Source: Mobula birostris
Taxonomy: Eukaryota
Direction of reading: 5' to 3'
DNA: 64,000 bases
Assembly (NCBI RefSeq): GCF_030028105.1
Contig: NC_092381.1
Location: 65,250,505 to 65,314,504, forward strand
In this document: in pieces, positions 1-60,578 of the stretch
Layout of the letters: every line of letters starts with the position of its first letter
How positions within the stretch are numbered: position 1 is the first letter of the stretch
Notes under the pieces: model-generated
Told to the model about the DNA's origin: nothing
The model's input: only the letters and a program-made list of their open reading frames with translations
Database searches by the model: none
Position numbers and translations under genes: made by a program

Positions 1-938
1 CTTTTCATATGGTTTTACCAAGTGTTTCTTTATAAATGTCAGTGTGTAAGAAATTGACACAGCAGTAATTCATAAGCACTAAGTCTGCTATGTACCATGT
101 ATAAGATCATGAGTGATCCTGTGCCCCAAGTCTATTTTACTGTCTGATCACTATAATGACAATCTCCACAACTCTCTGAAGTGGAAAATTCCAGTAATCT
201 ATAGCACAAGCTGTAAACAGGTATTCCTTTTCCAACATCCTATCCTTAGATTATGCCCCCATAATCTGTCAGCTCACCTCAAAAGTTTGTGTTTCACATT
301 TCATTCCACTGCATTGAGATGTCATGCATGATAGGCCAGGCTTCCTCAATTTTTCTTGATGAAGCATCTTCCTCGTCCCAGGAATCAAATGTTTAGATCT
401 TTGCTTTTGTAACTACATACCAAGTGTTTTTCCAGATATGGAGACCAAAATTGCACAGAGTATTCTAGGAATAGTCCTAATAAAGCCCTATGGAATTTCA
501 TTAAGCTTTTCTTACTGTTGTACTCTAACCCACTTGCATTCCTAATTGTTCTGTTTTTATTTTCATCTTCTAAAGCATTGGACTCAGATCTATTTGCATA
601 CAGTTATTTGGTGCTTATTATTGAAAAACTATTCTGGGTATCTAATATTCCATGCAAAATTCACAGCATATTTTTCCAGTTTGCCTCTGAGGTTTTTCTG
701 CAGACTCTTGTGTCCTTAAAGCATACTTTAACACCCGACTCTGAAATGTCAGGAAACCTGGATTCTGTCTTTATTTTTCAAATAACCTTTGAAAATTACC
801 TGTAGATTATCTTTGTCCTGGGCATATAATTGACCATCACAAATACGAGGAAATCTGCAGATGCTGGAAATTCAAGCAACACACATCAAAGTTGCTGGTG
901 AATGCAGCAGGCCAGGCAGCATCTTTAGGAAGAGGTAC

Positions 939-974
939 AGTCGATGTTTCGGGCCAAGACCCTTCGTCAGGACT
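939..974 (-). ncRNA. Minimal type I hammerhead ribozyme motif (PLE), stem III mutated
   Basis: Minus strand AGTC-CTGACGA-AGGGTCTTGGCCC-GAAACATC-GACT; ACGT palindrome changed to ACAT. Confidence 0.75.
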
Positions 975-1858
975 AACTGAAAGAAGAGCTAGTAAGAAAG
1001 TGGGAGGAGGAGGGGGAGATCCAAAATGATAGGAGAAGACAGGAGGGGGAGGGATGGAGCCAAGAGCTGGACAGTTGATTGGCAAAGGGGATATGAGAGG
1101 ATCATGGGACAGGAGGCCTAGGGAGAAAGAAAAGGGGGAGGGGGGGAAAAACCCAGAGGATGGGCAAGGGGTATAATGAGAGGGACAGAGGGAGAAAAAG
1201 GAGAGAGAGAAAAAGAATGTGTGTATATATAAATAACGGATGGGATACAATGGGGAGTTGGGGCATTAGCGGAAGTTTGAGAAGTCAATGTTCATGCCAC
1301 CAGGTTGGAGGCTACCCAGACGGAATATAAGGTGTTGTTCCTCCAACCTGAGTGTGGCTTCATCTTTACAGTAGAGGAGGCCAGCCTCCGGGTCCAACAT
1401 ATTATTCTCCGTAACTTCTACTTCTGCTACCTCCAACAGGATCCCACCACTAAGCACATCTTTCCCTCCCCCCCCCCACCCCGCTTTCCACAGGGATCGC
1501 TCCCTACGCAACTCCCTTGTCCATTCGCGCCCCCTCCCCCATCCCTCCCCACCGATCTCCCTCCTGGCACTTTCCCTTGTAAGCGGAACAAGTGCTACAC
1601 ATGCCCTTACACTTCCTCCCTTACCACCATTCAGGGCCCCAGACAGTCCTTCCAAGTGAGGCGACACTTCACCTGTGAGTCAGCTGGGGTGTTATACTGC
1701 GTCCGGTGCTCCCGATGTGGCCTTCTATATATTGGCGAGACCCGACGCAGACTGGGAGATCGTTTTGCTGAACGCCTACCCTCTGTCCACCAGAGAAAGC
1801 AGGATCTCCCAGTGGCCACACATTTTAATTGCACCTCCCATTCCCATTCTGATATGTC

Positions 1859-3240
1859 CTGCCTTGTCCCTGTGCCGAAGGCACCGCGCCCCAGCGGCCT
1901 CAATGACTACAGACCAGTGGCATTGACCTCCCACATCATGAAGACCCTGGAGAGACTTGTTCTGGAGTTGCTCCGGCCTATGGTCAGGCTGCACTTAGAT
2001 CCTCTCCAGTTCGCCAACCAGCCCTGACTAGGAGTTGAGGATGCCATCGTCTACCTGCTGAACCGTGTCTATGCCCACCTGGACAAGCCAGCAAGCACTG
2101 TGAGGGTCATTTTTTTTTGACTTCTCCAGTGAGTTCAACACCATCCGCCCTGCCCTGCTAGGAGAGAAGCTGACAGTGATGCAGGTGGATGCTTCCCTGG
2201 TGTCATGGATTCTTGATTACCTGACTGGCAGACCACAGTACTTGTGCTTGCAACACTGTGTGTCCGACAGAGTGATCAGCAGCACTGGGGCTCCATAGGG
2301 GACTGTCTGGTCTCCCTTTCTTTTCACCATTTACACCTCGTACTTCAACTACTGCACAGAGTCTTGTTATCTTCAGAAGTTTTCTGATGACTCTGCCATA
2401 GTTGGATGCATCAGCAAGGGAGATGAGGCTGAGTACAGGACTACGATAGGAAACTTTGTCACATGGTGTGAGCAGAATTATCTGCAGCTTAATATGAAAA
2501 AGACTAAGGAGCTGGTGGTAGACCTGAGGAGAGCTAAGGTACCGGTGACCCCTGTTTCCATCCAGGGGGTCAGGGTGGACATGGTGGAGGATTACAAATA
2601 CCTGGGGATACGAATTGACAATAAACTGGACTGGTCAAAGAACACTGAGGCTGTCTACAAGGAGGGTCAGAGCTGTCTGTATTTCCTGAGGAGACTGAGG
2701 TCCTTTAACATCTACTGGACGATGCTGAGGATGTTCTACAAGTCTGTGGTGGCCAGTGCTATCATGTTTGCTGTTGTGTGCTGGGGCAGCAGGCTGAGGG
2801 TAACAGACACCATCAACAAACTCATTCGTAAGGCCAGTGGTGTTGTGAGGATGGAACTGGACTCTCTGACGGTGGTGTCTGAAAAGAGGATGCTGTCGAA
2901 GTTGCATGCCGTCGAAGTTGCATGCCATCTTGGACAATGTCTCCCATCCACTACATAATGTACTGGGTGGGCACAGGGGTACATTCAGCCAGAAACTCAT
3001 TCCATCGAGATGCAACACAGAGCGTCATAGGAAGTTATTCCTGCCTGTGGCCATCAAACTTTACAACTCCTCCCTTGGAGGGTCAGACACCCTGAGCCAA
3101 TAGGCTGGTCCTGGACTTATTTCCTGCTATAATTTACATATTACTATTTAACTATTTATGGTTTTATTACTATTTATTATTTATGGTGCAACTGTAACGA
3201 AAACCAATTTCCCCCGGGATCAATAAAGTATGACTATGAC
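1859..3240 (+). mobile_element. 5'-truncated Rex1/Babar-type LINE inserted in the PLE
   Basis: RT motifs VPVPK..LNDYRPVALTSHIMKTLERL, LDPLQFA, KFSDD, YKYLG; stops and frameshifts including a 16-bp duplication at 2895-2926; AATAAA plus (ATGACT)n tail. Confidence 0.85.
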
Positions 3241-3659
3241 TATCCACGGCCTCCTCTACTGTAAAGATGAAGCCACACTCAGGTTGGAGGAAGAACACCT
3301 TATATTCCGTCTGGGTAGCCTCCAACCTGATGGCATGAACATTGACTTCTCAAACTTCTGCTAATGCCCCACCTCCCCCTCCTACCCCATCTGTTACTTA
3401 TTTATATGCACACATTCTTTTTCTCTCTCTCCTTTTTCTCCCTCTGTCCCTCTCACTATACCCCTTGCCCATCCTCTGGGTTCCCCCCCCTCCCCCTTTT
3501 CTTTCTCCCTAGGCCTCCTGTCCCTTGATCCTCTCATATCCCTTTTGCCAATCACCTGTCCATCTCTTGGCTCCATCCCTCCCCCTCCTGTCTTCTCCTA
3601 TCATTTTGGATCTCTCCCTCCCCCTCCCACTTTCAAATCTCTTCACTCCTCGTTCAGTT

Positions 3660-3695
3660 AGTCCTGACGAAGGGTCTCGGCCCAAAACGTCAACT
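3660..3695 (+). ncRNA. Degenerate hammerhead motif (core G12 to A)
   Basis: AGTC-CTGACGA-AGGGTCTCGGCCC-AAAACGTC-AACT; probably inactive. Confidence 0.6.
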
Positions 3696-4017
3696 GCACC
3701 TCTTCCTAGAGATGCTGCCTGGCCTGCTGTGTTCACCAGCAACTTTGATGTGTGTTAATTGACCATCAAACTGGTTTTGCACAGTTTCCAGTTCCTAACT
3801 TGTAGTTTGATTTAGCCATATCATGTACTGTTATCAATGAGATACAGCATAAATGCATGCCAGTTTCAAAAGATGATGTGATTTGGAATAACACTTCGAA
3901 AATTTCTGTTTGTAAAAACTAGATTGCAGAATTTCACGCCAGCAAAATAAATATTGCATGCATTTTCCACCTCTGAATCTTAAACTCATCACAGATAAGC
4001 AAACTCTTGATTTACTT

Positions 4018-4048
4018 ACACACACACACACACGCGCGCGTGCGCGCC
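4018..4048. repeat. (CA)n/(CG)n alternating purine-pyrimidine microsatellite
   Basis: acacacacacacacacgcgcgcgtgcgcgc read directly. Confidence 0.85.
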
Positions 4049-7000
4049 CACCCGCCCACCAATCTGAGTTCATAATTTTCATATTAATTTATTGGTTAGG
4101 CATTGTTTGTTATATTGCTTGTTATTTCATATTTTTTTGGTTAATCATTTTGGTACAGTGTTTTGGTGGTTGGTGCCTTTGGGCAGAGTGCCCACAAGAA
4201 AAGTCTATTAAATATCCAAATGCATCCTTTGACATGATTTATAGTGTTTGTCCTGTGTTCTGTCATGGCATTCACAAACGCCTGAACTACTGTTTATACA
4301 GGTACCTGAAAGAAGTGGAAGGCCATAAACAGAAAGATTGGACTAACATTTCAGTAATTCTGCATTTAAAATTATCACTGCACCATCTGGTAGTTTTTAC
4401 CATAAAAGTTAACAGATTCCTCTGCAGAAAGTTAACTGAAATATGAAAGTTTGACTTCTGTTTGTGTGGTTGGGATTGAGAACCAGTAGTCCTATACTGG
4501 CCATGCAGCATTGGCAAAGTAATATGCATTTATTAAAAGCATTAACATTTATGGAAGTTTTACCAAGAATTTATTGAACATGTAGAGAATTTGGAACTCA
4601 CCTCTTTTTATTTTCTTACAGGAATCAACTTGAGCTATGATTGATCTCCATTTTCAAGGAACTTATAAGATCCAGTTCCCGAACTTTTTTTGTCTGAAAC
4701 TGTACTCTCAGCTCCATTTGAATAAACACTTAACAGCAAGATTTTGTTGCCATTTGTAGTCTGGTAGTATCACTTTTTTATTGATCAGTATGGACTGCAA
4801 TACTTGATAACTTGTATTTATTAAAAAAAGTGTAACCAACTTTATATTGTTCCTGGAGCTGCTAAAATTGGAAAATTTTAATTTCAGTGTAAACAAATCA
4901 TTTGCTTCTAACTCTTTCTGATCATAACCTTACATCTTTTTGAGGTTGCAAGATTCTAGACTGTTTTTAACAAGTAAGGGATCCATGGTGACTTGGCTGT
5001 TTGGATTCAAAATTGGCATGTCCATAAAAATCAGAGGGTGGTGGCAGTGGAACTTATTTTGACTGGAGGTCTGTGTCTCGTCATGTCTGCAGGGGTCTGT
5101 ACTAGGACCTCTGTTGTTCGTAGTAATGTTATATAATAGTGACTTGGAAGAAAATGTGGATGGGTGAGTTGGTAGGTTTGCAGATGGTACTAAGATCATT
5201 GGCAATATGGATAGTTTAGGAAATAGAATATAGTTGCAGATATGGGTGGTGAATTGCTGATAGAGTTTAATCCAGCCAGTATAAGGTGTTGTATTTCGAG
5301 AGAGCAGTTGTAAAGAGACAGTAAACAATTAATGGCAAGACCCTTAAGAGTGTTAATGTACAGAAGAATGTTGGGGTCCTAGTTTACAGCTCTCTGAAAG
5401 TGACTACACAGGTTGGTAGAATGGTAAAGTAGGCAGACAGCATAGAAATAGAACCATAGAAAAACTACAGCACAGAAACAGGCCTTTTGGCCCTTCTTGG
5501 CTGCCGAACCATTTTCTGCCTAGTCCCACTGACCTGCACACGGACCATATCCCTCCATACACCCCCCATCCATGTATCTGTCCAATTTATTCTTAAATGT
5601 TAAAAAAGAACTCGCATTTACCACCTCGTCTGGCAGCTCATTCCACACTCCCACCACTCTCTGTGTGAAGAAGCCCCCCCTAATGTTCCCTTTAAACTTT
5701 TCCCCCTTCACCCTTAACCCATGTCCTCTGGTTTTTTTCTCCCCTTACCTCAGTGGAAAAAGCCTGCTTGCATTCACTCTATCTATACCCATCATAATTT
5801 CATATACCTCTATCAAATCTCCCCTCATTCTTCTACGCTCCAGGGAATAAAGTCCTAACCTATTCAACCTTTCTCTGTAACTGAGTTTCTCAAGTCCTGG
5901 CAACATCCTTATAAACCTTCTCTGCACTCTTTCAACCTTATTTATATCCTTCCTGTAATTTGGTGACCAAAACTGAACACAATACTCCAGATTCGGTCTC
6001 ACCAATGCCTTATACAACCTCATCATAACATTCCAGCTCTTATACTTGAATACTTTGATTAATAAAGGCCAATGTACCAAAAGCTCTCTTTACGACCCTA
6101 TCTACCTGTGATGCGACTTTTAGGGAATTTTGTATCTGTATTCCCAGATCCCTCTGTTCCACTGCACTCCTCAGTGCCTTACCATTAACCCTGTATGTTC
6201 TACCTTGGTTTGTCCTTCCAAAGTGCAATACCTCACACTTGTTTGTATTAAACTCCATCTGCCATTTTTCCAGCTGGTCCAAATCCCTCTGCAAGCTTTG
6301 AAATCCTTCCTCACTGTCCACTACACCTCCAATCTTTGTATCATCAGCAAATTTGCTGATCCAATTTACCACATTATCATCCAGATCATTGATATAGATG
6401 ACAAATAACAATGGACCCAGCTCTGATCCCTGTGGCACACCACTAGTCACAGGCCTCCACTCTGAGAAGCAATTCTCTACTCTTTGGCTTCTTCCATTGA
6501 GCCAATATCTAATCCAATTTACTACCTCTCCATGTATACCTAGCAACTGAATTTTCCTGACTAACCTCCCATGCGGGACCTTGTCAAAGGCCTTACTGAA
6601 GTCCATGTAGACAACATCCACTGCCTTCCCTTCATCCACTTTTCTGATAACCTCCTCGAAAAACTCCAATAGATTGGTCAAACATGACCTACCACGCACA
6701 AAGCCATGTTGACTCTCCCTAATAAGTCCCTGTCTATCCAAATGCTTGTAGATTCTATCTCTTAGTACTCCCTCCAATAACTTACCCACTACCGACGTCA
6801 AACTTACTGGCCTATAATTTTCCGGATTATTTTTCGATCCTTTTTTAAACAACAGAACAACATGAGCCATTCTCCAATCCTCCAGCACCTCACCCGTAGA
6901 CACCAACATTTTAAATATATCTGCCAGGGCCCCTGCAATTTCAACACTAGTCTCCTTCAAGGTCCGAGGGAATACCCTGTCAGGTCCCAGGGATTTATCC

Positions 7001-7106
7001 ACTTTAATTTGCCTCAAGATAGTAAGCACCACCTCCTTTTCAATCTCCACACATCAAAGTTGCTGGTGAACGCAGCAGGCCAGGCAGCATCTCTAAGAAG
7101 AGGTGC

Positions 7107-7142
7107 AGTCGACGTTTCAGGCCGAGACCCTTCGTCAGGACT
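7107..7142 (-). ncRNA. Minimal type I hammerhead ribozyme motif, intact core
   Basis: Minus strand AGTC-CTGACGA-AGGGTCTCGGCCT-GAAACGTC-GACT. Confidence 0.85.
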
Positions 7143-8257
7143 AACTGAAGGAAGAATGAGTAAGGGATTTGAAAGTTGGAGGGGGAGGGGGAGATCCAAA
7201 ATGATAGGAGAAGACAGGAGGGGGAGAGATGGAGCCAAGAGCTGGACAGGTGATAGGCAAAAGGGGATACGAGAGGATCATGGGACAGGAGGTCTGGCAA
7301 GAAAGACAAGGGGGGGGGGGACCCAGAGGATGGGCAAGAGGTATATTCAGAGGGACAGAGGGAGAAAAAGGAGAGTGAGAGAAAGAATGTGTGCATAAAA
7401 ATAAGTAACAGATGGGGTACGAGGGGGAGGTGGGGCCTAGCGGAAGTTAGAGAAGTCGATGTTCATGCCATCAGGTTGGAGGCTACCCAGACAGAATATA
7501 AGGTGTTGTTCCTCCAACCTGAGTGTGGCTTCATCTTTACAGTAGAGGAGGCTGTGGATAGACATGTCAGAATGGGAATGGGATGTGGAATTAAAATGTG
7601 TGGCCACTGGGAGATCCTGCTTTCTCTGGCGGACAGAGCGTAGATGTTCAGCAAAGCGGTCTCCCAGTCTACGTCGGGTCTCGCCAATATATAAAAGGCC
7701 ACATCGGGAGCACCGGACGCAGTATATCACCCCAGTCGACTCACAGGTGAAGTGTTGCCTCACCTGGAAGGACTGTTTGGGGCCCTGAATGGTGGTAAGG
7801 GAGGAAGTGTTAAGGGCATGTGTAGCACTTGTTCCGCTTACATGGATAAGTGCCAGGAGGGAGATCAGTGGGGAGGGATGGGGGGGACGAATGGACAAGG
7901 GAGTTGTGTAGGGAGCGATCCCTGCGGAATGCAGAGAGAGGCGGGGAGGGAAAGATGTGCTTAGTGGTGGGATCCCGTTGGAGGTGGCGGAAGTTACGGA
8001 GAATAATATGTTGGACCCGGAGGCTGGTGGGGTGGTAGGTGAGGACCAGGGGAACCCTATTCCTAGTGGGGTGGCGGGAGGATGGAGTGAGAGCAGATGT
8101 GCGTGAAATGGGGGAGATGCGTTTAAGAGCAGAGTTGATAGTGGAGGAAAGGAAGCCCCTTTCTTTAAAAAATGAAGACATCTCCCTCGTCCTAGAATGA
8201 AAAGCCTCATCCTGAGAGCAGATGTGGCGGAGACGGAGGAATTGCGAGAAGGGGACG

Positions 8258-8398
8258 CTATAAGCCTACTGACTCTCATAGCCTACTATAAGCCTACTGA
8301 TTCTCACAGCTTACTATAAGCCTACTGACTCTCACAGCATACTATATGCCTACTGACTCTCACAGCTATACTATAAGCCTACTGACTCTCACAGCTAT
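8258..8398 (+). repeat. 5 x 28-29 bp tandem repeat (CTATAAGCCTACTGACTCTCACAGCNTA)
   Basis: Five near-identical units; the last reads on in frame as YKPTDSHSYLGYSSSHPVSCKNAIPFSQ (PLE RT thumb). Confidence 0.9.
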
Positions 8399-8703
8399 CT
8401 GGGCTATTCCTCTTCTCACCCTGTCTCTTGCAAAAACGCCATCCCCTTCTCGCAATGCACACATTCTTTCTCTCACTCTCCTTTTTCTCCCTCTGTCCCT
8501 CTGAATATACCTCTTGCCCATCCTCTGGGTCCTTCCCCCCCATCTTTCTTCCCGGACCTCCTGTCCCATGATCCTCTCGTATCCCCTTTTGCCAATCACC
8601 TGTCCAGCTCTTGGCTCCATCCCTCCCCCTCCTGTCTTCTATCATTTTGGATCTCCCCCTCCCCCTCCAACTTTCAAATCCCTTACTCACTCTTCCTTCA
8701 GTT

Positions 8704-8739
8704 AGTCCTGACGAAGGGTCTCGGCCCGAAACGTCGACT
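8704..8739 (+). ncRNA. Minimal type I hammerhead ribozyme motif, best copy
   Basis: Stem I AGTC/GACT; core CTGACGA (8708-8714); extra A; stem II GGGT-CTCG-GCCC; GAA; palindromic stem III ACGT; predicted cleavage after C8735 (GUC). Confidence 0.88.
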
Positions 8740-10379
8740 GCACCCCTTCCTAGAGATGCTGCCTGGCCTGCTGCATTCACCAGCAACTTCGATGTGTGTT
8801 GCTTGAATTTCCAGCATCTGCAGAATTCCTGTTGTTTTCCTTTTCAATCTCTACAGTTTCCATGATCTCACTACTTGTTTCCCTTAATTCCATAGATTTC
8901 ATGCCAGTTTCCTTAGTAAATACAGACGCAAAAAACTCATTTAAGATCTCCCCCATGTCTTTTGGTTCCACACATAGCTGACCACTCTGATCTTCAAGAG
9001 GACCAATTTTATCCCTTACAATCCTTTTAATATACCTGTAAAAGCTCTTTGGATTATCCTTCACTTTGACTGCCAAGGCAACCTCACGTCTTCTTTTAGC
9101 CCTCCTGATTTCCTTCTTAAGTATTTTCTTGCACTTTTTATACTCCTCAAGCACCTTATTTACTCCCTGTTTCCTATACATGTCCTACAACTCTCTCTTC
9201 TTTATCAGAGTTGCAATATCCCTTGAGAACCAAGGTTCCTTATTCCTATTCACTTTGCCTTTAATGCTGACAGGAACATACAAGCTCTGCACTCTCCTTT
9301 GAAGGCTTCCCAATTACCGATCACATCCTTGCCAGAGAACAACCTATCCCAATCCACACTTTTTAGATCCTTCCTCATTTCTTCAAATTTGGCCTACTTC
9401 CAGTTTAGAACCTCAACCCTAGGACCAGATCTGTCTTTATCCATGATCAAGTTGAAACTAATGGTGTTATGATCACTGGAACCAAAGTGCTCACCTACAC
9501 ACACTTCCGTCACTTGTCCTAACTCATTTCCTAATAAGAGATCTAATACTGCATCCCCTCTAGTTGGTACCTCTATATATTGATTTAGAAAACTCTCCTG
9601 AACACATTTTACAAACTCTAACCCATCTAGACCCCTAACAGTATGGGAGTCCCAATCAATATGTGGAAAATTAAAATCCCCTACCACCACAACTTTATGT
9701 TTCCTGCAGCTGCCTGCTATCTCTCTGCAGATTCTCGCTGACTATTGGGTGGTCTATAATATGATCCCACTAATGTGGCCATACCTTTCCTGTTTCTCAG
9801 CTCCACCCATAAGGACTCAGTAGACAAGCCCTCTAATCTGTCCTGCCTGAGCACTGCTGTAACATTTTCCCTGACAAGCAATGCTACCCCTCCACCTTTC
9901 ATTGCTCTGCCTCTATCACATCGGAACCCTGGAACTTTAACTTTATTAGTAAAGGCACCGAGTTCAAGAGTCAGGAAGTTAATCTGCAGCTTTATAAAAC
10001 TATTAAATTATTAAACATGCATCTAAAGGATGCTTTCATTTCTGATTGCCCCATTATAAGGATGTGGAGGCAATGAAGGGGGTTACAGAGGAAGTTTACC
10101 AAGATACCTTCTAGATTAGAAGGCAGGTACTATAAAGAGAGATGGGACAAACTTGGGCTGCTTTCTGTGGAATGGCAGAGGCTGAGGGGAGACCTGGTGG
10201 AGGTTTATAAGATTATGAGAGGCATAGATACACATCCAACTTCCATTTCCCAGGGCTGAAATGTCTAGAGGGCATATATTTAAAGTGAGACAGGGTAATA
10301 TCAAAGGAAATATACTGGACAAGTTCTTAATTTCACCGAAAGTGGTGGGCACCTGGAATATTTCCACTACATACCACAT

Positions 10380-11095
10380 ATCTCCTTCCCCTTCACCTTA
10401 AATCTTTGCCCTTCATTAATTGATATTTCCAATCTGGGAGTAAGACTCTTGACTATCTACCCAATCTATGTTTCTCATAATTTTCTGTGCTTCTGTCAGG
10501 TTTCACCTAGCTTTCAGTACTCCAGTGAGAATAATTAAGTTTATCCAAACTCTCCTTATAGCTAATGCTCTCTAGATCAGGCAACGTTCTAGCAAACCTA
10601 TTCTGAACCCTCTCCGAAGCCTCCATATCCTTCCTTTAATATGATGTCCAGAACCACACACAAGATTCCAAATGCGGCTGGGCCAGTTTTATACAGCTGC
10701 AACATGACCTCATGACTTTTATATTCATCACACCGACTGAGGAAGGTAAGCATATCATATGCCTTTACCACCCTATATATTTGTGTACCCACTTCCAAGA
10801 AGTTATGGACTTGCATTCCAATATCTCCTTTAAGTGCTTCTAAGAATCCTGCCATTTACTGCTTACTGTCCCCTTAAACTTAACCTTCAAAAATGTACCT
10901 TCTCAGGCTTCTTCGGATTAAACTCAAATCTGCTATTTTTCCGCTTCTAAGAATCCTGCCATTTACTGCTTATTGTCCCCTTAAACTTAGCCTTCGAAAG
11001 TGTACCTTCTCACGCTTGTTCGGATTAAACTCAAATCTACATTTTTCCGCTCATCTCTCCAATTGATCTGTATCCTGCTGTATACTTTGACAACC
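10380..11095 (-). mobile_element. Degenerate CR1 3' fragment with internal tandem duplication of about 107 bp (10836-11049)
   Basis: YKSHEVMLQLYK-like CR1 RT C-terminus; gcttctaagaatcctgccatttactgc occurs twice. Confidence 0.7.
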
Positions 11096-18334: not shown

Positions 18335-18862
18335 TCATTCAATATCTACATCACTGCCATCACTAGCATTTTCACAAGCAGTGAATTCTCTTTCTGGCAA
18401 AAGGCCATATTCATTGAGGAAAGTTTCAACATCCACCGCAAAAAATTCTTCACCCAGCTGCTCGGTAATATGAAGGAAGTTGCCAATTAGTTCTCCTGCC
18501 TTGTACACCAGTAGTGCTGGTAGAATATTATCAGAGAAGCGGTCACTAGTTCCAGTGTTAGAGGCCTTTATTTTACAGAACTTAACCAAAGGATATTCCA
18601 AAGCAAGGCATGTTAAACAGTTAATCAAAGACTCGCATCCCTTCACTCTGTCCTCGTAAACATTCACCATCACTGTAGTTTTTTTCAATTCCTTTTCAAT
18701 CACTTCCAAGAATTGCTCCCCACTTTCAAGCTCATAGAGCATTCCAAACTGGGGGCCAACGCTTAGCTGCTGGTGCATCTCTCGCATGCATTGCTTGCGG
18801 TACCTACGAAGGCAAGCTTCATCTTCCTCATCTTGAATCATTTCATATTCTTGTACACTCAT
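18335..18862 (-). CDS. PDC: Phosducin, last coding exon (thioredoxin-like domain)
   Basis: Acceptor aaacag then MSVQEYE...[16 protein letters not shown]...[16 protein letters not shown]...[10 protein letters not shown], acidic tail, stop. Spliced CDS 73+158+528 = 759 nt = 252 aa plus stop. Short N-terminus fits PDC rather than PDCL. Confidence 0.95.
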
Positions 18863-19604
18863 CTGTTTCAGAAGGATAAAGAGAAAACAAAAGCTTTGCA
18901 AAAGAATGTTAATTTATCATGGGAAGACGTAACTCATTGTGAATTGCCTAAGGCATCAGTATCATTCAGGAATAAAAGTCTAATTGCTTTAGTGCTGACT
19001 TGCTCATTCTTGAATTTCAAATTACTTCCTGGATTTTTGTTCGTACAGTATCTGCCTTGTCTTTAATACAAAAATGCTTATTTTCCTTTTTTGATTCAAG
19101 ACTATTTAATTCACTGAAGCATCCACAGTGACAAGTAATTTGATTTCTTGTTTGTGGCATTTTCTTGGTACATTGTTGTTTACTCTTTTAAAGATTTACC
19201 TTTATTTGTATAATATATTTATTTATTCTTTAAAAAAATATTATTGTGCTTTATTTTCTTTACTTCTTTCCTGATTGTAGTTTTTAAAATGGTGAGAGGT
19301 GTAAGATGTTTTGTGTTCCCAGGAACCCTTTCTATGAATTACTTAAAATTAACTGTGAAATGAAGTGAGCAATTAGGAAGCAAACTGCATATAGGCCTGT
19401 ATGGTGAAAGGATTTCACTGCAAGAGTAAAGACTAAATGTGTTCCTGCTTGACGAAACAACATTGGAATATTGTATACAGGCTTGATCTTATTCATTGAA
19501 GGATATACTTCGAAAGGAAGAGTGTTTTGTTGCTTTGGTTGAATCCTTGAATGGAAGGTTTGTTATACCAGGTTAAAGTAAGCACAAGAGATTACATGGG
19601 TTTA

Positions 19605-21220: not shown

Positions 21221-21525
21221 TTACTACTGGTTTACTTCCCTTATTTCTTCCTCTAAATCCCTTCTAGTTGGCTGCATGATTCCTTTATTAAGGTGGTAGA
21301 TCCTTAATATATAATTAATATAATTCCTTTCATTCTGATTGCCTATATGTTGTAATTAGTGTAGGTACACTCTCTCATCCTCCTCTTTCTCTTTGGAATG
21401 TGTTGCATTCTGCAATTTTTAACCAAATTTGTTCTCCACTTCTACAAATCAACGTGTTCAGTTTATCAAATTAATTTTAAATCTTCTTTGCTTTGTAATT
21501 GATTATCTTTCCTGTTTTTACTCAC

Positions 21526-21683
21526 CTTTCGAGTGAATTTCTTTCGAGTGTCTTTGTCCTCCTTACTAAAAGAGTGGTATGGTGATGACAGTTGTCTAAG
21601 GAGTTGCTTTTTATCTGAAGAAATTTCATGGTCCTCGCTTTCTAGTTTAAATTTCCTCCAGTCATTGATCACTCCTTTTGGAC
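21526..21683 (-). CDS. PDC: Phosducin, second coding exon ([17 protein letters not shown]...RQLSSP...FTRK)
   Basis: Acceptor tttctag and donor AAG|gtgagt; 158 nt, phases 1/0 fit both neighbours; contains the G-beta-gamma-binding motif GPKGVINDW. Confidence 0.95.
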
Positions 21684-22019
21684 CTAGAAATGCAACTGTT
21701 TTAATGTTGTTTTCTGCTAGACATGTGCACATTACTAATAACATTGTCCCAATGTAGTTATACAAAATTGTATGACACAGTAACAAAATCCAGCACCAAG
21801 AGTGGCAAAATGATGTAGCAGATAGTGATGCTGCTGCTCGACTCACTAGTTTGAATGCGACCTCTTGTGCCACCTGTGCTTAACTGACTGTTGTAAATTA
21901 CCCCTCAAGTATGCTTGTGGCAGGGGAATTAGGGAGGAAATCGATGGGCATGTGAAAGAAAAATGCCGAGGAATAGCACTAATGATAATGTTCACGTAAG
22001 CTTTTCATTTGCTTTACCT

Positions 22020-25439: not shown

Positions 25440-27370
25440 TTTGAATAACTTGGAGTATATCCCAAAAGGCCCTGGAGACTTATCCTGCTTGGTATTCTTA
25501 ACCAAACTTAACCATGCCCCATACTATCTCATTTTCCTCCATATCCTTCTCCTTGGTAAATACTGATGCAAATTACTTATTTAGGATCTCTGCCTCCAAG
25601 CACATGTTCCCTCCTTTAATCTTCAATAGTCCAAACCCCTTGCTAGTTAAGCTTTTACCTTTGACGTATGCATAGAATACCTTGGGGTCTTCTTCAACCC
25701 TACTTACCAAGGGCTTTTCATGTTCCTCCTACCAGCTGTTCTATTTGTCTTCATGAGTTCTAGCTTTATAATCCTCGAGGGCTCCATTTGATTTTTTTTT
25801 TAGCTTCCTAACCTAATGTACGCTCCTTTTCTTGTCATCCTTGTCCTCCTGAAAGGTATCCATCCCCCTGTACTTTGTACAGTTGATCTTTAAAAACCCT
25901 CCATGCCAGATGTGGACTTGCCCAAAAACAGCTTTATAAAATTCACTATTTCCTAACAACTGAGGTGTAGCTCAAATATGCATGCATAGCCCACTGCTCT
26001 ACTCTCTTGACTGTGTGGCTCATCATAGCTCAAATGACATCTATAAATTTGCAGGTGACACAATTGTAAGAGCTCAGATGGTGGTGAGGAGGCATGCAGG
26101 AATAAGATAGATTTGCTGGTTGAGTAGTGTCACAACAACAACCTCATATTCAACATGAGCAAAACTAAGGAATTGATTGTGGCCTTCATTAAAGGGGAGA
26201 TTAGGAGAACTCACACCAGTTCTCATTGAGGGGTCAGTTGTGCAAAGGGTGAGCATCTTCAAGTTCCTGGGTGTGGACATCTCAGCGAATCTATCCTGGG
26301 CCAAACACAGATTCAACAATAAAGGAAGTTCCCCAAAAACTAATTTGTTAGGAATTTGGGGAGATTTGGTATGCAGTCAAAGACTTGCAAGTTTTTATGG
26401 ATTTATGGTGGAGAACATTCTAACCGATTGATTCCCAGACTGCTATTGAAGGCACTGGATTGTTTCCCAGATTTATGATGGAGAACATTCTAACTGGTTG
26501 TTTCCCAGACTGCTATCGAAGGCACTGGATTGCAAGGCTGCACAGTGTCATAGACCCAGCCAGCTTCAACGTGCTCACAACTTCCCTGTCTTCGAGGACA
26601 TCTTTAAGAAGTGATGCCTCAAGAAGATGTCATCCATTACTAAGGGCTCTCACCATCTGAAAGATGCCTTGTTACTACTAACAGGGAGGAGCTACAGCAG
26701 CTCAAAGACCCATACTCAATGATTCAGAAACAGCGGCTTCACCTCTGCTATCAAATTTCTGACAAGTCCATGAACCCTACTCATTTCTTCTTTCTGTGGT
26801 ATTCATTTTGTAACTGAGGCTAAATTCATGTCTTTGCACTATAGTACTGATGCAAAACAACAACTTTATATATAAGACAGTGATAATAAATCTGTTTCCA
26901 AATTTCTCCTGTTCCAATTTCATATTCTTCCACAATGTCCTTACTCACATTTAAAGAAGTTATGGTCACTGTTCTCTTTTCTCAAACTGAAAGCAAGTCA
27001 CCTTGGCCAGGTTAATTTCCCAACAGCAAGTCCAATATGGCTCCTCCACTACATATTGATTTAAAAACATTCCTGGATGCACCTGACAAGTTCTGCTGCA
27101 TCTAAACCTCTTGAAATGTGGTCTGAGTCTATATTAGAGACGCTGAAGTCGCTCACTGCAATAGCCATGTTTTTGCATTTTTCCTAACCTTTCTGCATTT
27201 CCATTCATCCATGTCCCAGAGTCATTTGTGAGTCTGCAGTATACTCATACTCCCATCAACATGATGGAACCTTTCTTATTCTTCAGTTCTATCTGTGTGC
27301 ACAGTGAGTGATGTCCCCTCTGCATGCAGCTTGTGATATTGTCCCTGATTAATAATACAACCCCTTACAC
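25440..27370. mobile_element. Old minus-strand CR1 remnant interrupted by a plus-strand Rex-type fragment (about 25985-26895)
   Basis: KFAGDT and FKFLGV-like RT motifs; duplication of about 62 bp within 26401-26532. Confidence 0.6.
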
Positions 27371-36429: not shown

Positions 36430-39005
36430 AAACAATAAGGCCATTCAGCCCATTGAGCCTCCTTTGCAATTTGATCATGGCTGATTTATTTTTCCTCTCA
36501 ATTCCATTCTCCTGCCTTCTCCCCCTAACCTTTGACACCCTTACTAATCAAGAACCTATTAACATCTACTTGAATCAAGAACCTGTTAACCTTCTGGTCA
36601 AGATGACGTCTACATACAATGCTCCTTTGGCTGACTTCTTCTGGATAAAACCATCTTTTTCACTTCTTTTATGTCTTGTTACATTTGTTTCTGGTTTTGA
36701 ATGGGATTCTGGAACTGTTGGAGCCTGTGTTTTGCTGTTAGATTGTTTGGGTGTTTCCGTGCTCTGCAGTCTCTGAGAGGGCTCCAGGAGGTGGAGGCAG
36801 TGTGAGTGAACCTTGTGGTGAGAAGGTTGCAGGATGCCACCTGAGCCGATGTTTGACCAGATTCCACTGATTATAGCTTCCGTTGTTTGCTGATTAAAGC
36901 AAGAAAGGTGATTGAAGCATCAAGGTGAGTGCCTAAGTTTGGATATCGTTCGGGTTCCAGCACTCTGCAGTCTCTGAGAGGATTTCAGGAGACAAGTAGC
37001 ATGCAAAAACCCTGAATTGGGCAGGCCGCAGGATGGGGCATGAGGCTGATGCTTGGCTCCATTTTGCTGATTATAGCTTCCATTGTTCACCAGCTAAAAC
37101 AACAAGGGAGGTTGAAGCATTAGAGTGACTGCAGAGGGCTGCTTAACTTTCGATCAGTTGCTCCGTACCAGAGACGGGAAAGCTTGCTGCTCCACCTGGA
37201 CGTGTTGCCCAGGTTTTTACTGCGTTTTGGATGTGGACTTTGACTATAGACTCTTTTTTTCAGTCTTATCATTTTTATATGATTTTTTTTTCCTGGTTTC
37301 TTGTTTTTTTGTGTGGGGAGGGGGATTTGAGGGTCAATGTGCCTGATGTGTTTTGTTTATTTTTTTGTGTTCTAAGAGGGATTTGGGGGTCAATGTGCCT
37401 GTTACATTTTTGTTCTTTTTTTTTTGCAGGGAGCTGTGATTTGGGGGTTGGTGATCATGCATTCTTTTCTTTCTTAGTTACATGGCTACACAGAGAATTG
37501 AAGAATTTCAGAGTTATATACTTTGATAATAAATGAACCTTTGAAATATGCCCAATGACTTGGCCTCCACAACAGTCGATGGCAATGAATTCCACAGATT
37601 CACCACCCTCTAGCTAAAGAAATTCTTCCATATCTCTGTTCTAAAGGGACATGCATTCATTCTAAGGCTGCCCCTCTGATCCTAGACTCTCCCCCTATTG
37701 AAAACATCTTCTCCACACCCACTCTATCTAGGCCTTTCAATATTCAGTAGGTTTCAATGAAATAGCACCTCATTCTTCTAACCTCCAGTGAGTACAGCCA
37801 TCAAATATTGCTCATATGTTAATTCTTTCATTCCTGGCCATTCCTGAAATCCTACTTGTAAGTCTCCTCTGGACTCTCTCCAATGCCAGCAAGCAGATCC
37901 TTTCTCAGATATGTGGGCCAAAACTGCCCAGAATGCTCCAAATGCAGTCTGACCAATGCCTTATAAAGCCTCAGCAATACATTCTTGCTTTTATATTCTA
38001 GTGCTCTGGAAATGAACGCTAATATTGCATTTGTCTTCCTTACTATGACTCAACCTGCAAGTTAATCTTTAGGCAAAGTTCCCTTGCACTTCCAATTTCT
38101 GAATTTGCTCCTCATTTAGAAAATTGTCTATGCATTTATTCCTTCCACCAAAGTGAATGACTGTACACTTTCCAACATGGTATTCCATGTTCAAAGTTCA
38201 AAGTACATTTATTATCAAAACTTGTATACTTTGTACAACCTTGGAATTCATCTCCTTACAGGCAGGCACAAAACAAAGAAACCCAATTGAATCCATTAAA
38301 AGAAAAGAAGTCCATCAAACACCCAATGTGCAGAAAAGTGTAAATAATAAAGGTAAGCAAATAACATTCAGAACTGAAGTTCACGAAAGTGAGTCCACAG
38401 CCATGAAGCCGGTCATCGCTGCAGTGGATTCAGTTGCAGGCCACAGCCTCAGTTCAGTGCAGAGACATGTAAACCTCTCCGAGCAGCAAGCTGAACCAGT
38501 CCATCCCTCATCTCCAGCCCCGACACCCTGACCTTTTCAATCTGGCCCAGTGCTTAAATCATCCAAACCTTAGGTCGTTTCTTGCTCTCGGACGCAGATC
38601 CCGATACTTCGATACATTCTTGGGCCTGAACCCTGGTGTCTAGACTCTGCATTGCCTCCGTTTGCCTCCCCTTGGTTCTACTGCTTTGAATTGTCTCCAA
38701 GTGCATTCCAGAAATAGCCAAACATTAGCTTATTCCTCGCTCTCATACCCAGGCCAAACCATAAGCCACTTCTTGCTGATTCTCTTAGTCTGTCCAAGTC
38801 GTTCTGCGGACTCCCTGCTTCACTAACAACACCTGCCCCTCTACACTTCTCTTTGTATCATCTGCAAACTTGCCACAAAGCCATCAATTCTGCTATCCAG
38901 CTCATTAATATATAACGTGAAAAACAGTGGACCCAACACAACCGCTGTGGAAGATCACTAGTCGCTAGAAGCCTAACAGAAAAGGCTCTTTTTACTCCCA
39001 CTCTG
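36430..39005 (-). mobile_element. CR1 3' fragment carrying two nested non-coding insertions (about 36590-37545 and 38190-38760)
   Basis: CR1 sequence resumes after each insert; the inserts have AATAAA plus (GAACTTT)-like tails; the first has an internal duplication of about 200 bp. Confidence 0.6.
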
Positions 39006-43659: not shown

Positions 43660-44560
43660 GTCGGTCCTTGTTTCTCTCCTGGTCTCAGTTTATTTCTCTT
43701 CCTTTGGTCTGCTCTTTTTTCACTTTCCTTCTCTCATGCCTTTCTCTTTCTCACTCTCTGTCTCTTCTCTCCTTTTCAACTTCTAGTTGCCTGTCAGTAT
43801 CTCCGAATTTGCTAATTTCTCAAGAAATTAAGTCCCGTTTATCCTCTTCCATTTCCATAGCACTTTGTGTCATCCTCTTCTTTCTTTTCTTTCCAGTTTA
43901 TGCATCTTCATCTTGGGAAGGTGCATTTACTTCATTGCAATATTCTCTTATTAATCATTTTATTGTTCCCTTTATGATCCGATCATAAAGATAATGAGAG
44001 GCATTGATCATGTGGATAGTCAGAGGCTGTCCCCAGGGTTGAAATGGTTAGCACAAGAGGGCACAGTTTTAAGGTGCTTGGAAGCAGGTACAGAGGAGAT
44101 ATCAGGGGTAAGTTTTTTATGCGGAGAGTGGGGAGTGCGTGGAATGGGCTGCTGGCAGCGGTGGTGGAGGCGGAAACGATCGGGTCTTTTAAGAGACTCC
44201 TGGATGGCTACATGGAGCTTAGAAAAATAGAGGGCTATGGGTAAAGCCTAGGTAGTTCTAAGGTAGGGAAATGTTTGTCACAGCTTTGTGGGCCGAAGGG
44301 CCTGTATTTTGCTGTAGGTTTTTTTTATGTTCTATGTTCTATCTCTCCTCTTAGTTTCCTCATCTGACAAATCCTCTGTTTTCATATCTCCATTGACTCC
44401 TTTCATTTTTGTTGTCCATTCATCCAGCTGGGCTTTGATCTTTGAATTTACTTTTACAAGCAGCTTTTTGTCTCCCATTTGAAGTTCATGCAATAACCTT
44501 AATGCAAGCAGAGTAGATTCTGGTTCTTTATACTCACAAAAGCCGAATGCAAGAAGCAGG
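43660..44560 (-). pseudogene. RBM25: RBM25 processed pseudogene fragment, interrupted by CR1
   Basis: AFGFCEYKEPESTLLALRLLHELQMGDKKLLVKV..KAQLDEW..DEETKRRD, continuing after the CR1 as IKGTIK*LIREY..NAPSQ..MEEDKRDLIS*EISKF and an RE-rich tract; in-frame stops; no introns visible. Confidence 0.88.
43990..44340 (+). mobile_element. CR1 3' end inserted in the RBM25 retrocopy
   Basis: TRGHSFKVLG motif and (TATGTTC)n tail. Confidence 0.85.
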
Positions 44561-44799
44561 TACTCCTTAGTAAATGTTATAGTGAGAGGCCTGCATCCCA
44601 GGTTAAAAGAAATGTTCACTGCAATTTGTGTGAGATGGGGGGGGGGGGGGGGTGGCAGGGAAGAGTTAAACAAAAATCATAAGTGCTTTACAAGATGTCA
44701 GAGGCAGTTACAATATCAAAAGATTAGAACTGTTAAGGGAAATAAGGATAGAGTACTTGTATCCACGCCCCGCAGTGTTAGAGTAGTGGACATGGCAGA

Positions 44800-47060
44800 G
44801 GGGTGTAAAAGCGATTCCTGCAGTGGGTTGTGTTTTGCTTGTGGGTAGTCAGGTTACTAGGCTCGAAGATATCCTTGCCACCAAGACAACTTTGAAAACA
44901 GTCAGCTCCTGCCTCCATCAGCTGTACAGTGGACTACGCAGTTCACTGTAAGTAACCCATTTGGACAACATCCCAGCCTCTACAGGAGGGGTGTCAAACC
45001 CAAATTCCTGCCCATTATAAGGACTTCTGTTATTCCTTTGACTGTAGATAGATGACAATTAGACTTTCTGATTGATACTGGAGCCATGTTTTCTACAATT
45101 CATGCTTCTGATTGGCCTCAAGCATCTCTAACTGATGAATCAGTAAATGTCATGGGACTCATGGGGGACACAGTTTCTCCGCCTCTTTCCTGTAAGGTCA
45201 CTTATCAGGTTTTTAGACTTGAAGGAGAACATCAGTCTTTAATAGTGCCAGAATCACCAATTACTTTATCGGACTGGGACCTCCTTTGTAAGTTGGGATG
45301 TACATTAGTATGCTCCCCAGAAGCAGTACAATTCAAGGTGCCTGAGACACTCTATGCGACTGTTTGTGCTTCATTGGAAGGCTCTATTCAAAAATGATCA
45401 GAGGTCTGGTGGTTGAATTTCACTGATGAATCGTCTGCTAATCCATTAACTTCGGTTTAGCAACTGCTGGAGCTTTCAGAGGCCTGTACAGGGCGAGGGA
45501 AATTTCCACATATGACATCTGGGTGGTGCATGACTGTCAACTGTATGGGCACATTATTCTGCAGAGGATCCAGACCACTTGTATGAGAAAACAGTGAAAC
45601 AATTGCTCCAAGATCGTAACTGTAAGTCATTCTGACTTGTTATTCTCGCCCTCTGCGTGGATCCAGAAGGTGTTGTTGCTGCAATAAAGCTGAATCATTT
45701 TGTTTAAAGGCTGCCTGATGTGAGCCTGCGTGTTACCCTTTATTTTGCACCATCGAATCGCTCATGGGATTTGGGACATATGATGAATCATCTCTTGCAT
45801 AAGCCATCAGAGGTTGACTATGCCCAATTCGACAGAAAACTATCAGTATTTCCCTAGGCAATTGTTTTTATGTACAATAACCCTGCTTCCTATTCTGCTG
45901 AATTTAAATATCAAGCCCTAAGTCTCTCATGGGTAGGTGGATAGTGAAACAATCAAAAGCTTCTTTGCTCAAGTACCAGAAATACTGTGGGCCAAGTACT
46001 GTCTGCAGAACCTCTTAAAGTATGATTGGATTTGCAAAACCCCTCCCATGCAAACCTCAGTATCCCTTGAACCAGAGAAGAGCACAAAGCCTGTATTGGA
46101 AGCACTCCTGCTAAGTGGGATTGTCATTCCAACAGTGGCACCATGTAATATGACTATATTGATTGTTTTGAAGCTGGGAAAGGGCACCTGGCATTTTGTC
46201 CAAGACCCAAGGGCTGTTAATGAATCCGTAATACCAACCTATCCCATAGTTCCGGACCCAGCTACAATCTTCTGTTGTATTCCCACAAACACTAAATACG
46301 ACACAATTGGGGCATGTTTTCAATCCCATTTCACCCAGACTCCCAATATTTGTTTGCTCTCACCAACCAAGGCAAACATTATACCTGGACCCACCTCCCA
46401 CAGGGACACACAGAGTCCAACTCTCCAAAAGGACTTGGTAGATGTAATTTTCCCATCTGAATCCATATTCTCATAATATGCACTGCAGATGATCAGCTTT
46501 TATGTTCCCCCAATCACAAAGCCTCTGTAGTCCTTTTGCGTGCCCTGCTACCAAGAGCCACAAGGCGTTGAGAAATATTACAGCTTTCACAACCCAAAGT
46601 GCATTTTTTGGGTTTTCTCTTGAATGGGGCTTGTGACCTGCTTTCTGACAAAATGGTGCCAGCCATTGTCAGTCTGTCTAAACCAGTCCTCGAGGAGGAT
46701 CGTGTACACTTTCTGGGTATGACCGGATATTGCTGACAGTGGATTCTTAACTATGTTGAACTTAGTTACCCTCTTTCAGGACCTCACTTTATGTCAGTGC
46801 CCGAGCAATTGAAGAGGTCAACTGAAGCCGACAGGTCCTTTACTGCTCTCATGTCTGCATCGACCTTCGGACTCCCAGATTGTGGTAAGCCTTTCTATCT
46901 GTTTGTACACAAAATCAGAGGTTTTTCTCAAGCAGCTCTTATTCAACAACATGATGATGCCTGTCATCTGGTAGCCTGTTATCGTACTCACCTGGCCTTG
47001 TAGCTCAAGGTTATCCTGGTTGCCTGAAAGCTGTGGCTGCAACTTGCCATGGTTTGGCCA
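44800..47060 (+). mobile_element. Decayed class I (epsilon-like) endogenous retrovirus gag-end/pro/pol
   Basis: Degenerate zinc knuckle CFACG (about 44830); protease FLIDTGA (about 45065); RT PCN..WHFVQDPRAVN..PIVPDP, YTWTHLPQG, FLGMTGYC, LPDCGKPFYLFV; many frameshifts. Confidence 0.85.
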
Positions 47061-54930: not shown

Positions 54931-55059
54931 AGAGATATATTGATCATTTCATATACTGACCATTCTCTGATCTATCAGGTTCCTGATGATTCTCTGTCCT
55001 CTCATCTTAAATCTATGCCTTTCAGTTCTTGATTCCCCAAGCCCGGGGAAAGTCCGTGC

Positions 55060-60234: not shown

Positions 60235-60578
60235 CAAGCAGAACATGTCAGAATGGGAATGAGGATAGGGATTAAAACACTGGCAACTGGGAAGTTCCAC
60301 TTTTGGTTGGTGCAGAGGAGGTGCTCGACAAAGCAGTCACCAAATTTACATCCATTTGTCTCTCCCCACTAATCTTCTTCCTGACACATATCCTTGCAAG
60401 GAACAGAAATGCTACATCTGCCCATTCATCTCCTCCTTCACTTCCATTCAGGGCCCCAAACAGTCCTTCCAGGTGAGGCAACGCTTCACCTGCAAATTTC
60501 TTGTGGTCATCTACCGTATCTGGTGTTCCTGGTGCAGCCTCTTCTACATTGGTGAGACAAGATGTAAATTGGGGGATC
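60235..60578. mobile_element. Short inverted PLE remnant (GIY-YIG)
   Basis: Minus piece 60241-60340 abuts a plus piece 60350-60575 encoding VIYRIWCSWCSLFYIGET. Confidence 0.75.

Follow-up and report, generated by a model that had tools for sequence, protein, structure and literature searches.

PLEs of the EN+ class encode an RT followed by a GIY-YIG endonuclease, and their insertions are described as having element 3′ ends on both sides, a tail on one side only and a hammerhead-like motif in the pLTR (PMC8557442; for PAc, PMC11167929). The standard product is an inverted 5′-truncated copy with a tail of 30–40 bp at one end (PMC8557442), a tail that is also described in PMC11167929, where purified PAc nicks and extends both strands and the distance between the two start sites makes up the tail. 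Both sources describe the closure of PLE insertions as still undefined. PLE RTs group with TERT and DRT10 (PMC12632851); in telomerase and DRT10 the repeat period is fixed by an A-B-A′ template repeat together with a structural boundary (PMC12039810, PMC12632851).

Host end joining is the other process against which the present locus has to be set. POLQ performs one or more primer-extension cycles on the opposite break end (PMC5068794), and Pol theta inserts are reported as runs of 3–8 nt (PMC2895639) or as having a median of 7 bp in vitro, with templated and random bases mixed (PMC4912351). Extra bases at cDNA joins in fly embryos are PolQ-dependent (PMC3280974), the extra nucleotides at the 5′ ends of fish LINEs are host-dependent (PMC4245944) and L1 inversion junctions are resolved via end joining (PMC11702581). 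Spacers of 0–2 nt are an outcome of RT template switching (PMC3280974).

Here we describe a PLE insertion in a 64,000-nt stretch of the Mobula birostris genome (the window), whose two inverted arms meet in an array of five copies of the element's own RT-coding sequence. The array is the footprint of an insertion, a dead copy without function. Its overall structure is known for PLEs and its template switch for L1; what is new is an unusually regular templated junction insertion. The EN+ PLE descriptions, in the parts available (PMC8557442; PMC11167929), include neither a skip within an arm nor a five-copy array at the join, both of which are present here. A literature search across titles and abstract openings, which took in few subscription papers, found no multi-copy reiteration at PLE joins; the available parts of PMC11371274 and PMC2718515 treat snap-back and extra-template R2 junctions and R1/R2 junction additions, and those of PMC4209133 treat PLE hammerheads, none of them being such a scar.

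THE INSERTION

The PLE insertion is 1790 nt long (7048–8837) and lies between exact 14-bp target duplications within a LINE, which we take to be of the CR1 type. Deleting the insertion and one duplication copy restores an open LINE frame (ETVEIEKEVVLTIL). Its parts, outside the array, are as follows.

7034–7047, no strand: left 14-bp target-site duplication (TCCTTTTCAATCTC), inside the minus-strand, presumably CR1-like LINE; exact copy at 8838–8851
7048–8255, minus: arm 1, 1208 nt, 5′-truncated and tailless, covering IPFSQ, the linker, GIY-YIG and the element 3′ end
7440–7817, minus: GIY-YIG endonuclease-coding part of arm 1 (PF01541, E 2.6e-05, 24.8 bits against a cut-off of 22.6)
8241–8255, minus: start of arm 1; its 15 nt recur where the switched piece of arm 2 ends
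8369–8456, plus: switched piece of arm 2, 88 nt, RT-coding, from family contig loose ends and protein alignment
8455–8456, plus: AT microhomology at the switch from 3′ UTR to ORF, from loose ends before 8455 and behind 8456
8455–8798, plus: 3′ UTR or pLTR-like part of arm 2, inverted repeat of 7048–7396 (94% over 358 nt)
8704–8739, plus: minimal hammerhead-like motif (CTGACGA ... GAAAC GTC, with AGTC/GACT as helix I), of which arm 1 has another
8799–8837, plus: 39-nt 3′ tail, at this end only; similar tail on the copy at about 846–885
8838–8851, no strand: right 14-bp target-site duplication; LINE-like loose ends before 8838 in runs X17 and X18 match the left flank

The element 3′ end is thus present at both sides and the tail at one, and an inverted 5′-truncated copy with a 39-nt tail is the arrangement given for EN+ PLEs (a 30–40-bp tail at one end). 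The order of RT and then C-terminal GIY-YIG is shown by the alignment and by the GIY-YIG part of arm 1, which scores above the Pfam cut-off; this part is frameshifted relative to the upstream part near 7810. Two homologues, P0008 and P0017, carry RVT_1 and then GIY-YIG, the RVT_1 of the former and the GIY-YIG of the latter falling below cut-off, and four of the five window pieces had no Pfam match. The arm 1 translation contains VIYCVRCSRCGLLYIG, which is given as an EN+ PLE feature in the available part of PMC8557442, and its linker CKRNKCYTC (C-x4-C-x2-C) points to a putative place with Neptune/Nematis rather than Poseidon. The proteins closest to the PLE sequence come from the annotations of Mobula hypostoma (93%) and Hypanus sabinus, the amino acid identity of arm 1 to P0001 being 93%; no relatives of the window protein were found in metagenome contigs, nor, by alignment-based search, in viral contigs. 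The hammerhead-like core was recognised by eye against the description in PMC4209133, and the minimum-energy fold differs from it; Rfam found no RNA family in 500–10000.

The window holds further PLE copies. A second two-ended copy of the same family occupies 846–1858 and 3241–3757, with the tail on its left end and a LINE of about 1.4 kb (1859–3240) interrupting it; its join near 1381 has no array, and 828–839 and 3757–3768 form a candidate target duplication. Older, more diverged head-to-head copies lie at 52191–54960 and 60243–60577, again with joins that lack arrays. The homologous copy that the initial annotation placed near 53772 does exist, but it is older and belongs to a different family (72% nucleotide identity).

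THE ARRAY

The head-to-head join at which the array sits is the exact meeting point of arms 1 and 2. TRF reports the array at 8258–8395 with period 28, 4.9 copies, 92% matches and a score of 232; none of the other nine TRF rows exceeds four copies. A 20-nt unit motif has five matches in the 64 kb, all within the array, and none in each of 100 shuffles. A five-fold reiteration of an RT-coding segment, as initially annotated, is present in the window sequence. We parse it as five copies of a 27-nt core with the spacers C, T, A and TA, into which the variable junctions noted earlier (ccta, ctta, cata and ctata) resolve.

8256–8257, no strand: filler CG, 2 nt, at the head-to-head join; differs from the family sequence upstream of the unit and is not an exact continuation of arm 1
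8258–8282, plus: unit 1, 25 nt, lacking the first 2 nt of the core, one private C>T
8283–8310, plus: spacer C and unit 2, one private C>T
8311–8338, plus: spacer T and unit 3, same sequence as unit 5
8339–8366, plus: spacer A and unit 4, one private A>T
8367–8368, plus: spacer TA
8369–8395, plus: unit 5, the first 27 nt of the switched piece of arm 2, array template

Unit 5 continues in frame as YKPTDSHSYLGYSSSHPVSCKNAIPFSQ, which aligns to RT-family proteins directly after the FLDL motif, so that the repeat is, as had been proposed, the element's own RT sequence; the region is presumably the RT thumb. The reading then runs to TCCCCTTCTCGCAAT (8442–8456), the reverse complement of 8241–8255 at the 5′ end of the minus arm, and jumps at AT (8455–8456) to the 3′ UTR, both of which the annotation had correctly read. 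At the opposite-strand joint between 8255 and 8441 the 15 letters fit both sides in contigs of all four runs described below. The GCTAT said to bound the repeat does occur at 8257–8261 and 8394–8398, but it does not set the period, and G8257 is junction filler because family sequence upstream of the unit reads ...GATGTC|TACTAT (loose ends before 8369).

ABSENCE FROM THE FAMILY AND AGE

Contigs of four runs (out of 23) were aligned on 7400–8950. They depart from the window before 8369, where the family reads ...GATGTC (at least 69 contigs in X1 and at least 70 in X5), and behind 8456 (at least 62 and at least 67). The array is thus not part of the family consensus: family contigs read non-repeated sequence upstream of 8369, and the motif occurs once in eight of eight aligned homologous proteins. 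No array-spanning contig is among the contigs listed for the four runs. Depth in the bin covering the array alone is 2241, 905, 14 and 36, against 2.47 million, 1.41 million, 180,000 and 437,000 in the bin 8388–8439, a low value that suits a single locus and misplaced family contigs fitting two places alike.

Compared with unit 5, the other units carry three private differences in 133 sites (2.3%), none common to two units, while arms 1 and 2 differ by 13 substitutions in 344 aligned sites (1.9% per arm); the two rates agree (Fisher p 0.73). The simulated chance that four distinct junctions derive from one ancestral junction is 1e-5 to 3e-4 at 2.3–6% divergence, this figure and the age comparison assuming no hypermutable base and both arms from one template. 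Because the divergence equals that of the arms, variants are not shared and the four spacers differ, the array would have formed at insertion and not by later slippage. It is most likely as old as the insertion, each junction probably having been made separately by its own priming event, which agrees with the annotation's view of repeated cycles during integration. The locus itself displays the anatomy of the array, its absence from the family, its register and its relative age; the direction of synthesis is not readable from it, and the order of events, the type of template and the enzyme are what we infer.

THE TEMPLATE SWITCH IN ARM 2

Arm 2 consists of 383 nt of 3′ UTR and tail, the jump at AT and 88 nt of ORF, about 0.8 kb being skipped. 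This ORF piece shares 15 nt at its end with the start of arm 1, and a random landing so near has a chance of 1–2%. L1 twin priming with 5′ switching, as described in the available passages (bioRxiv 2024.08.27.596794; PMC11702581), resembles this in producing two cDNAs per RNA, the second of which has moved to uncopied RNA, and in its close breakpoints, short duplication and target duplication of 12–18 bp (14 bp here). The breakpoint duplication has a median of 22 bp in L1 and is 15 bp here. L1 primers are the poly(A) and an internal site, whereas here both would start at the element 3′ end (the tail sites), and multi-copy reiteration at the join, present here, is not mentioned in those twin-priming passages.

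The same geometry recurs in a distant PLE (L029:729–1883), one arm of which skips from the 3′ part and lands about 35 nt inside the start of the other; its switched copy is 61 nt long, and at its join 11 nt from the start of the other arm have been copied again imperfectly. Several PLE arms start in one short coding stretch (YKPTD ... CKNAIPFSQFL), at 8255, 8369 and 53274 in the window and at L020:482 and L036:49–53. The shared stretch is possibly a preferred stop of reverse transcription, on a locus search that favoured copies reaching nearby.

THE REGISTER OF THE UNITS

The initial annotation suggested that the PLE RT had added the repeats by telomerase-like cycles of realigning and copying. 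The register speaks against this: pairing predicts periods of 24 or 27 nt and none of the four junctions fits. The observed periods are 28, 28, 28 and 29, with 0–1 terminal pairs for a stop at the first base of the unit, while the pairing options in the template give 11, 36, 24, 33 or 27 nt. The alignment repeats in the template are CTA...CTA (27 nt) and CTAT...CTAT (24 nt), with stronger pairings at 11, 33 and 36 nt. A single 28-nt option with three pairs (stop at C8371) predicts the spacer TAT before CTAT, which none of the three 28-nt junctions has. The register thus ignores available pairings of 2–4 nt. No stable fold was found that could act as a template boundary (z -0.11 for 8369–8456; also -0.65). 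The array looks like the product of synthesis without pairing-directed realignment and resembles re-priming at an end with 0–2 jittered bases.

Two further candidates were examined. GCTAT as the realignment microhomology is ruled out, its CTAT pairing leading to a 24-nt period and its G being filler, and a circular 28-nt template is ruled out by the differing junctions.

In what is available on telomerase, DRT10 and DRT2, the likeness to this locus lies in tandem copies of one template stretch and in an RT related to the PLE RT. These systems make exact repeats (PMC12632851, PMC12039810), whereas the array here has varied junctions, a period off the alignment repeats and a single scar. Non-LTR retrozymes (bioRxiv 10.64898/2026.07.22.740005) are similar in being tandem arrays derived from PLE sequence; their units, as described there, are pLTR-derived with a hammerhead (type I) in each, whereas the unit here is 27 nt of ORF without a hammerhead core, and a circular retrozyme template would not yield the varied junctions seen.

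RELATED PLE JUNCTIONS

An alignment search yielded 50 PLE loci from metagenome contigs, among which we could identify 10 distinct head-to-head joins. At three of the 10 a short part of an arm end has been copied again: 11 nt with period 13 in L020, 11 nt with one mismatch and period 15 in L029, and 14 nt with period 18 in L035 (3937–3991), there followed by an 11-bp snap-back hairpin, a patchwork that appears typical of templated end joining. The three other joins in the window have no re-copy, which makes 3 of 13 in all. This count excludes four of the 17 non-focal positions scored, which are unclear as head-to-head joins (L005, L023, L031 and L011), and L040, which duplicates L039. A score of at least 9 was reached at 3 of the 17 positions; among PLE-body tiles it was reached by 6 of 275 (p 0.011 for the comparison) and among tiles from all loci by 108 of 2097 (p 0.056), in a small survey of distant families in short-read assemblies whose positions and score thresholds were picked after looking. 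Three or more copies occur at none of the related PLE junctions surveyed.

At one PLE 5′ junction (L049:3231–3420) about 70 nt of adjacent flank is repeated inverted, folded at an (AT)n run, and a 28-nt core of host flank stands twice (period 36) directly before the PLE 5′ end, with a further short repeat at the PLE start; the inverted flank may instead be an older palindromic repeat. Flank-templated and snap-back copies need a DNA template, since RNA cannot provide them. Taken with the present locus, L029, L035, L020 and L049 suggest that PLE head-to-head joins are ordinary substrates of end joining.

ORIGIN OF THE ARRAY

Whether the array arose by iterative DNA-templated synthesis while two cDNA ends were being joined is a balanced call, and it is the reading that we favour. 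Going by PAc biochemistry, both nicked strands would prime reverse transcription, the two start sites being separated by 39 nt. The first cDNA (cDNA 1) would halt after 1208 nt; the second (cDNA 2) would copy 383 nt, switch over the AT microhomology onto RNA lying just ahead of cDNA 1 and stop 88 nt after the switch with a 15-nt overlap, leaving two 3′ ends that need joining. Less surely, the end of cDNA 1 may then prime at the single-stranded tip of cDNA 2 and be extended by 25–29 nt until a fixed block stops it, which the RNA:DNA hybrid still present might form; once released, it may re-prime at the tip, with 0–2 bases that are jittered or untemplated. Four such rounds that aborted, followed by one that was completed, would give an array of five units. 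Read in this way, the locus would record steps of PLE closure, namely priming at both tail sites, a cDNA switch and repeated attempts at joining, and it suggests that one event at a PLE join can be enough to seed a minisatellite-like array whose units vary.

As the enzyme we tentatively choose a host polymerase of alternative end joining, one of the Pol theta type. The annotation had offered polymerase theta as its alternative, and this fits better, given the DNA-templated and snap-back re-copies at related PLE junctions, although the enzyme is unreadable from one locus. As in Pol theta end joining, which acts on cDNA ends, there would be opposite-end extension cycles, extra bases and junction-adjacent copies (in the available parts of PMC5068794, PMC2895639, PMC4912351 and PMC3280974), all five units here copying the terminal 27 nt of arm 2. 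The inserts described in those sources are shorter and patchier, whereas here there are four extra copies of 25–29 nt whose ends are fixed and whose junctions use little microhomology (0–1 nt at the four unit junctions though 2–4 nt were available; untemplated bases can mask pairing). Five same-orientation 27-nt copies whose ends are fixed to 1–2 nt are, set beside such inserts, far more regular, and this counts against the favoured reading. That the PLE RT itself worked on DNA, through end-to-end jumps, seems to us decidedly unlikely. Also against DNA-templated synthesis, the short spacers fit RT switching, and the reading does not account for the fixed stop at AGC, AGCT or AGCTA.

RNA-templated reiteration by the PLE RT, a loosened form of realigning and copying, falls on the unlikely side. 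The RT making cDNA 2 would meet the RNA 5′ end at the first base of the unit, add 0–2 bases and re-engage the stretch of 27–29 nt four times, by end-to-end jumps on an RNase-cut fragment or by realignment in intact RNA. A broken RNA end would naturally give the fixed 5′ boundary, short spacers are also what RT template switches leave (PMC3280974), cDNA 2 had switched template once already (8455–8456), the RT groups with those of telomerase and DRT10 (PMC12632851), and one X1 contig, which joins a tail-region position to exactly 8369 via C, is a weak hint of a preferred stop. The A-B-A′ rule, however, predicts 27 nt (CTA/CTA) or 24 nt (CTAT/CTAT), found at none of the four junctions, and no stable structure that could mark a boundary appeared in the folded stretches (z -0.11, -0.65); moreover the PAc study, in its available part, reports no repeat addition (PMC11167929), and the flank-templated and snap-back scars at related junctions lie beyond RNA templating. 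That the PLE RT in vivo copies one short segment of its own RNA several times running, re-engaging a bounded 27–29-nt template end to end and needing no alignment repeat for this, we hold to be unlikely. If the array was nonetheless RT-made, it would be relevant to how telomerase repeat addition arose, and PLE join scars would be a genomic record of primitive repeat addition in telomerase's closest mobile relative.

That a single junction duplication later grew into five copies through replication slippage or unequal exchange, which would make the array a young minisatellite, is very unlikely. Two-copy tandem duplications do occur in other repeats of the window, and the PLE family has go-back joints elsewhere (for example 7500 to 7469 and 7636 to 7565), but expansion copies the junction, leaving four distinct spacers to the small simulated chance given above, and no derived variant is common to units.

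It is highly improbable that the donor, as a rare deletion derivative, already had the array and the internal skip and that both were merely copied. The depths of 2241 (X1) and 905 (X5) in the array-only bin are possibly more than one locus yields, but they are less than 0.1% of the neighbouring family bin and explicable by family contigs fitting two places. The non-repeated family sequence upstream of 8369, the single motif in eight of eight homologous proteins, and a skip landing no more than 15 nt from the end of the other arm (a chance of about 1–2%) also stand against a donor origin. An artefact of assembly or long-read consensus beside the inverted repeat is hardly plausible: the array is spanned by none of the contigs listed for the four runs, but artefactual repeats would be near identical, whereas the units carry substitutions at the arm rate, the arms have 13 differences and a clean 14-bp target duplication surrounds the whole. 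A piRNA-sized RNA fragment as template was also considered, the unit beginning with U and measuring 27–29 nt.

OTHER FEATURES OF THE WINDOW

Minus-strand frames at 18335–18913 and 21466–21879 resemble what we take to be exons of a phosducin gene, and one at 44332–44676 presumably corresponds to part of RBM25, perhaps as a retrocopy. Broken frames at 45056–46476 with protease-like (FLIDTGA) and RT-like stretches presumably belong to an LTR or endogenous retrovirus-like element. Stretches of 107, 70 and 56 nt stand as two tandem copies each at 10836–11051, 26400–26532 and 37297–37422, apparently within old repeats.
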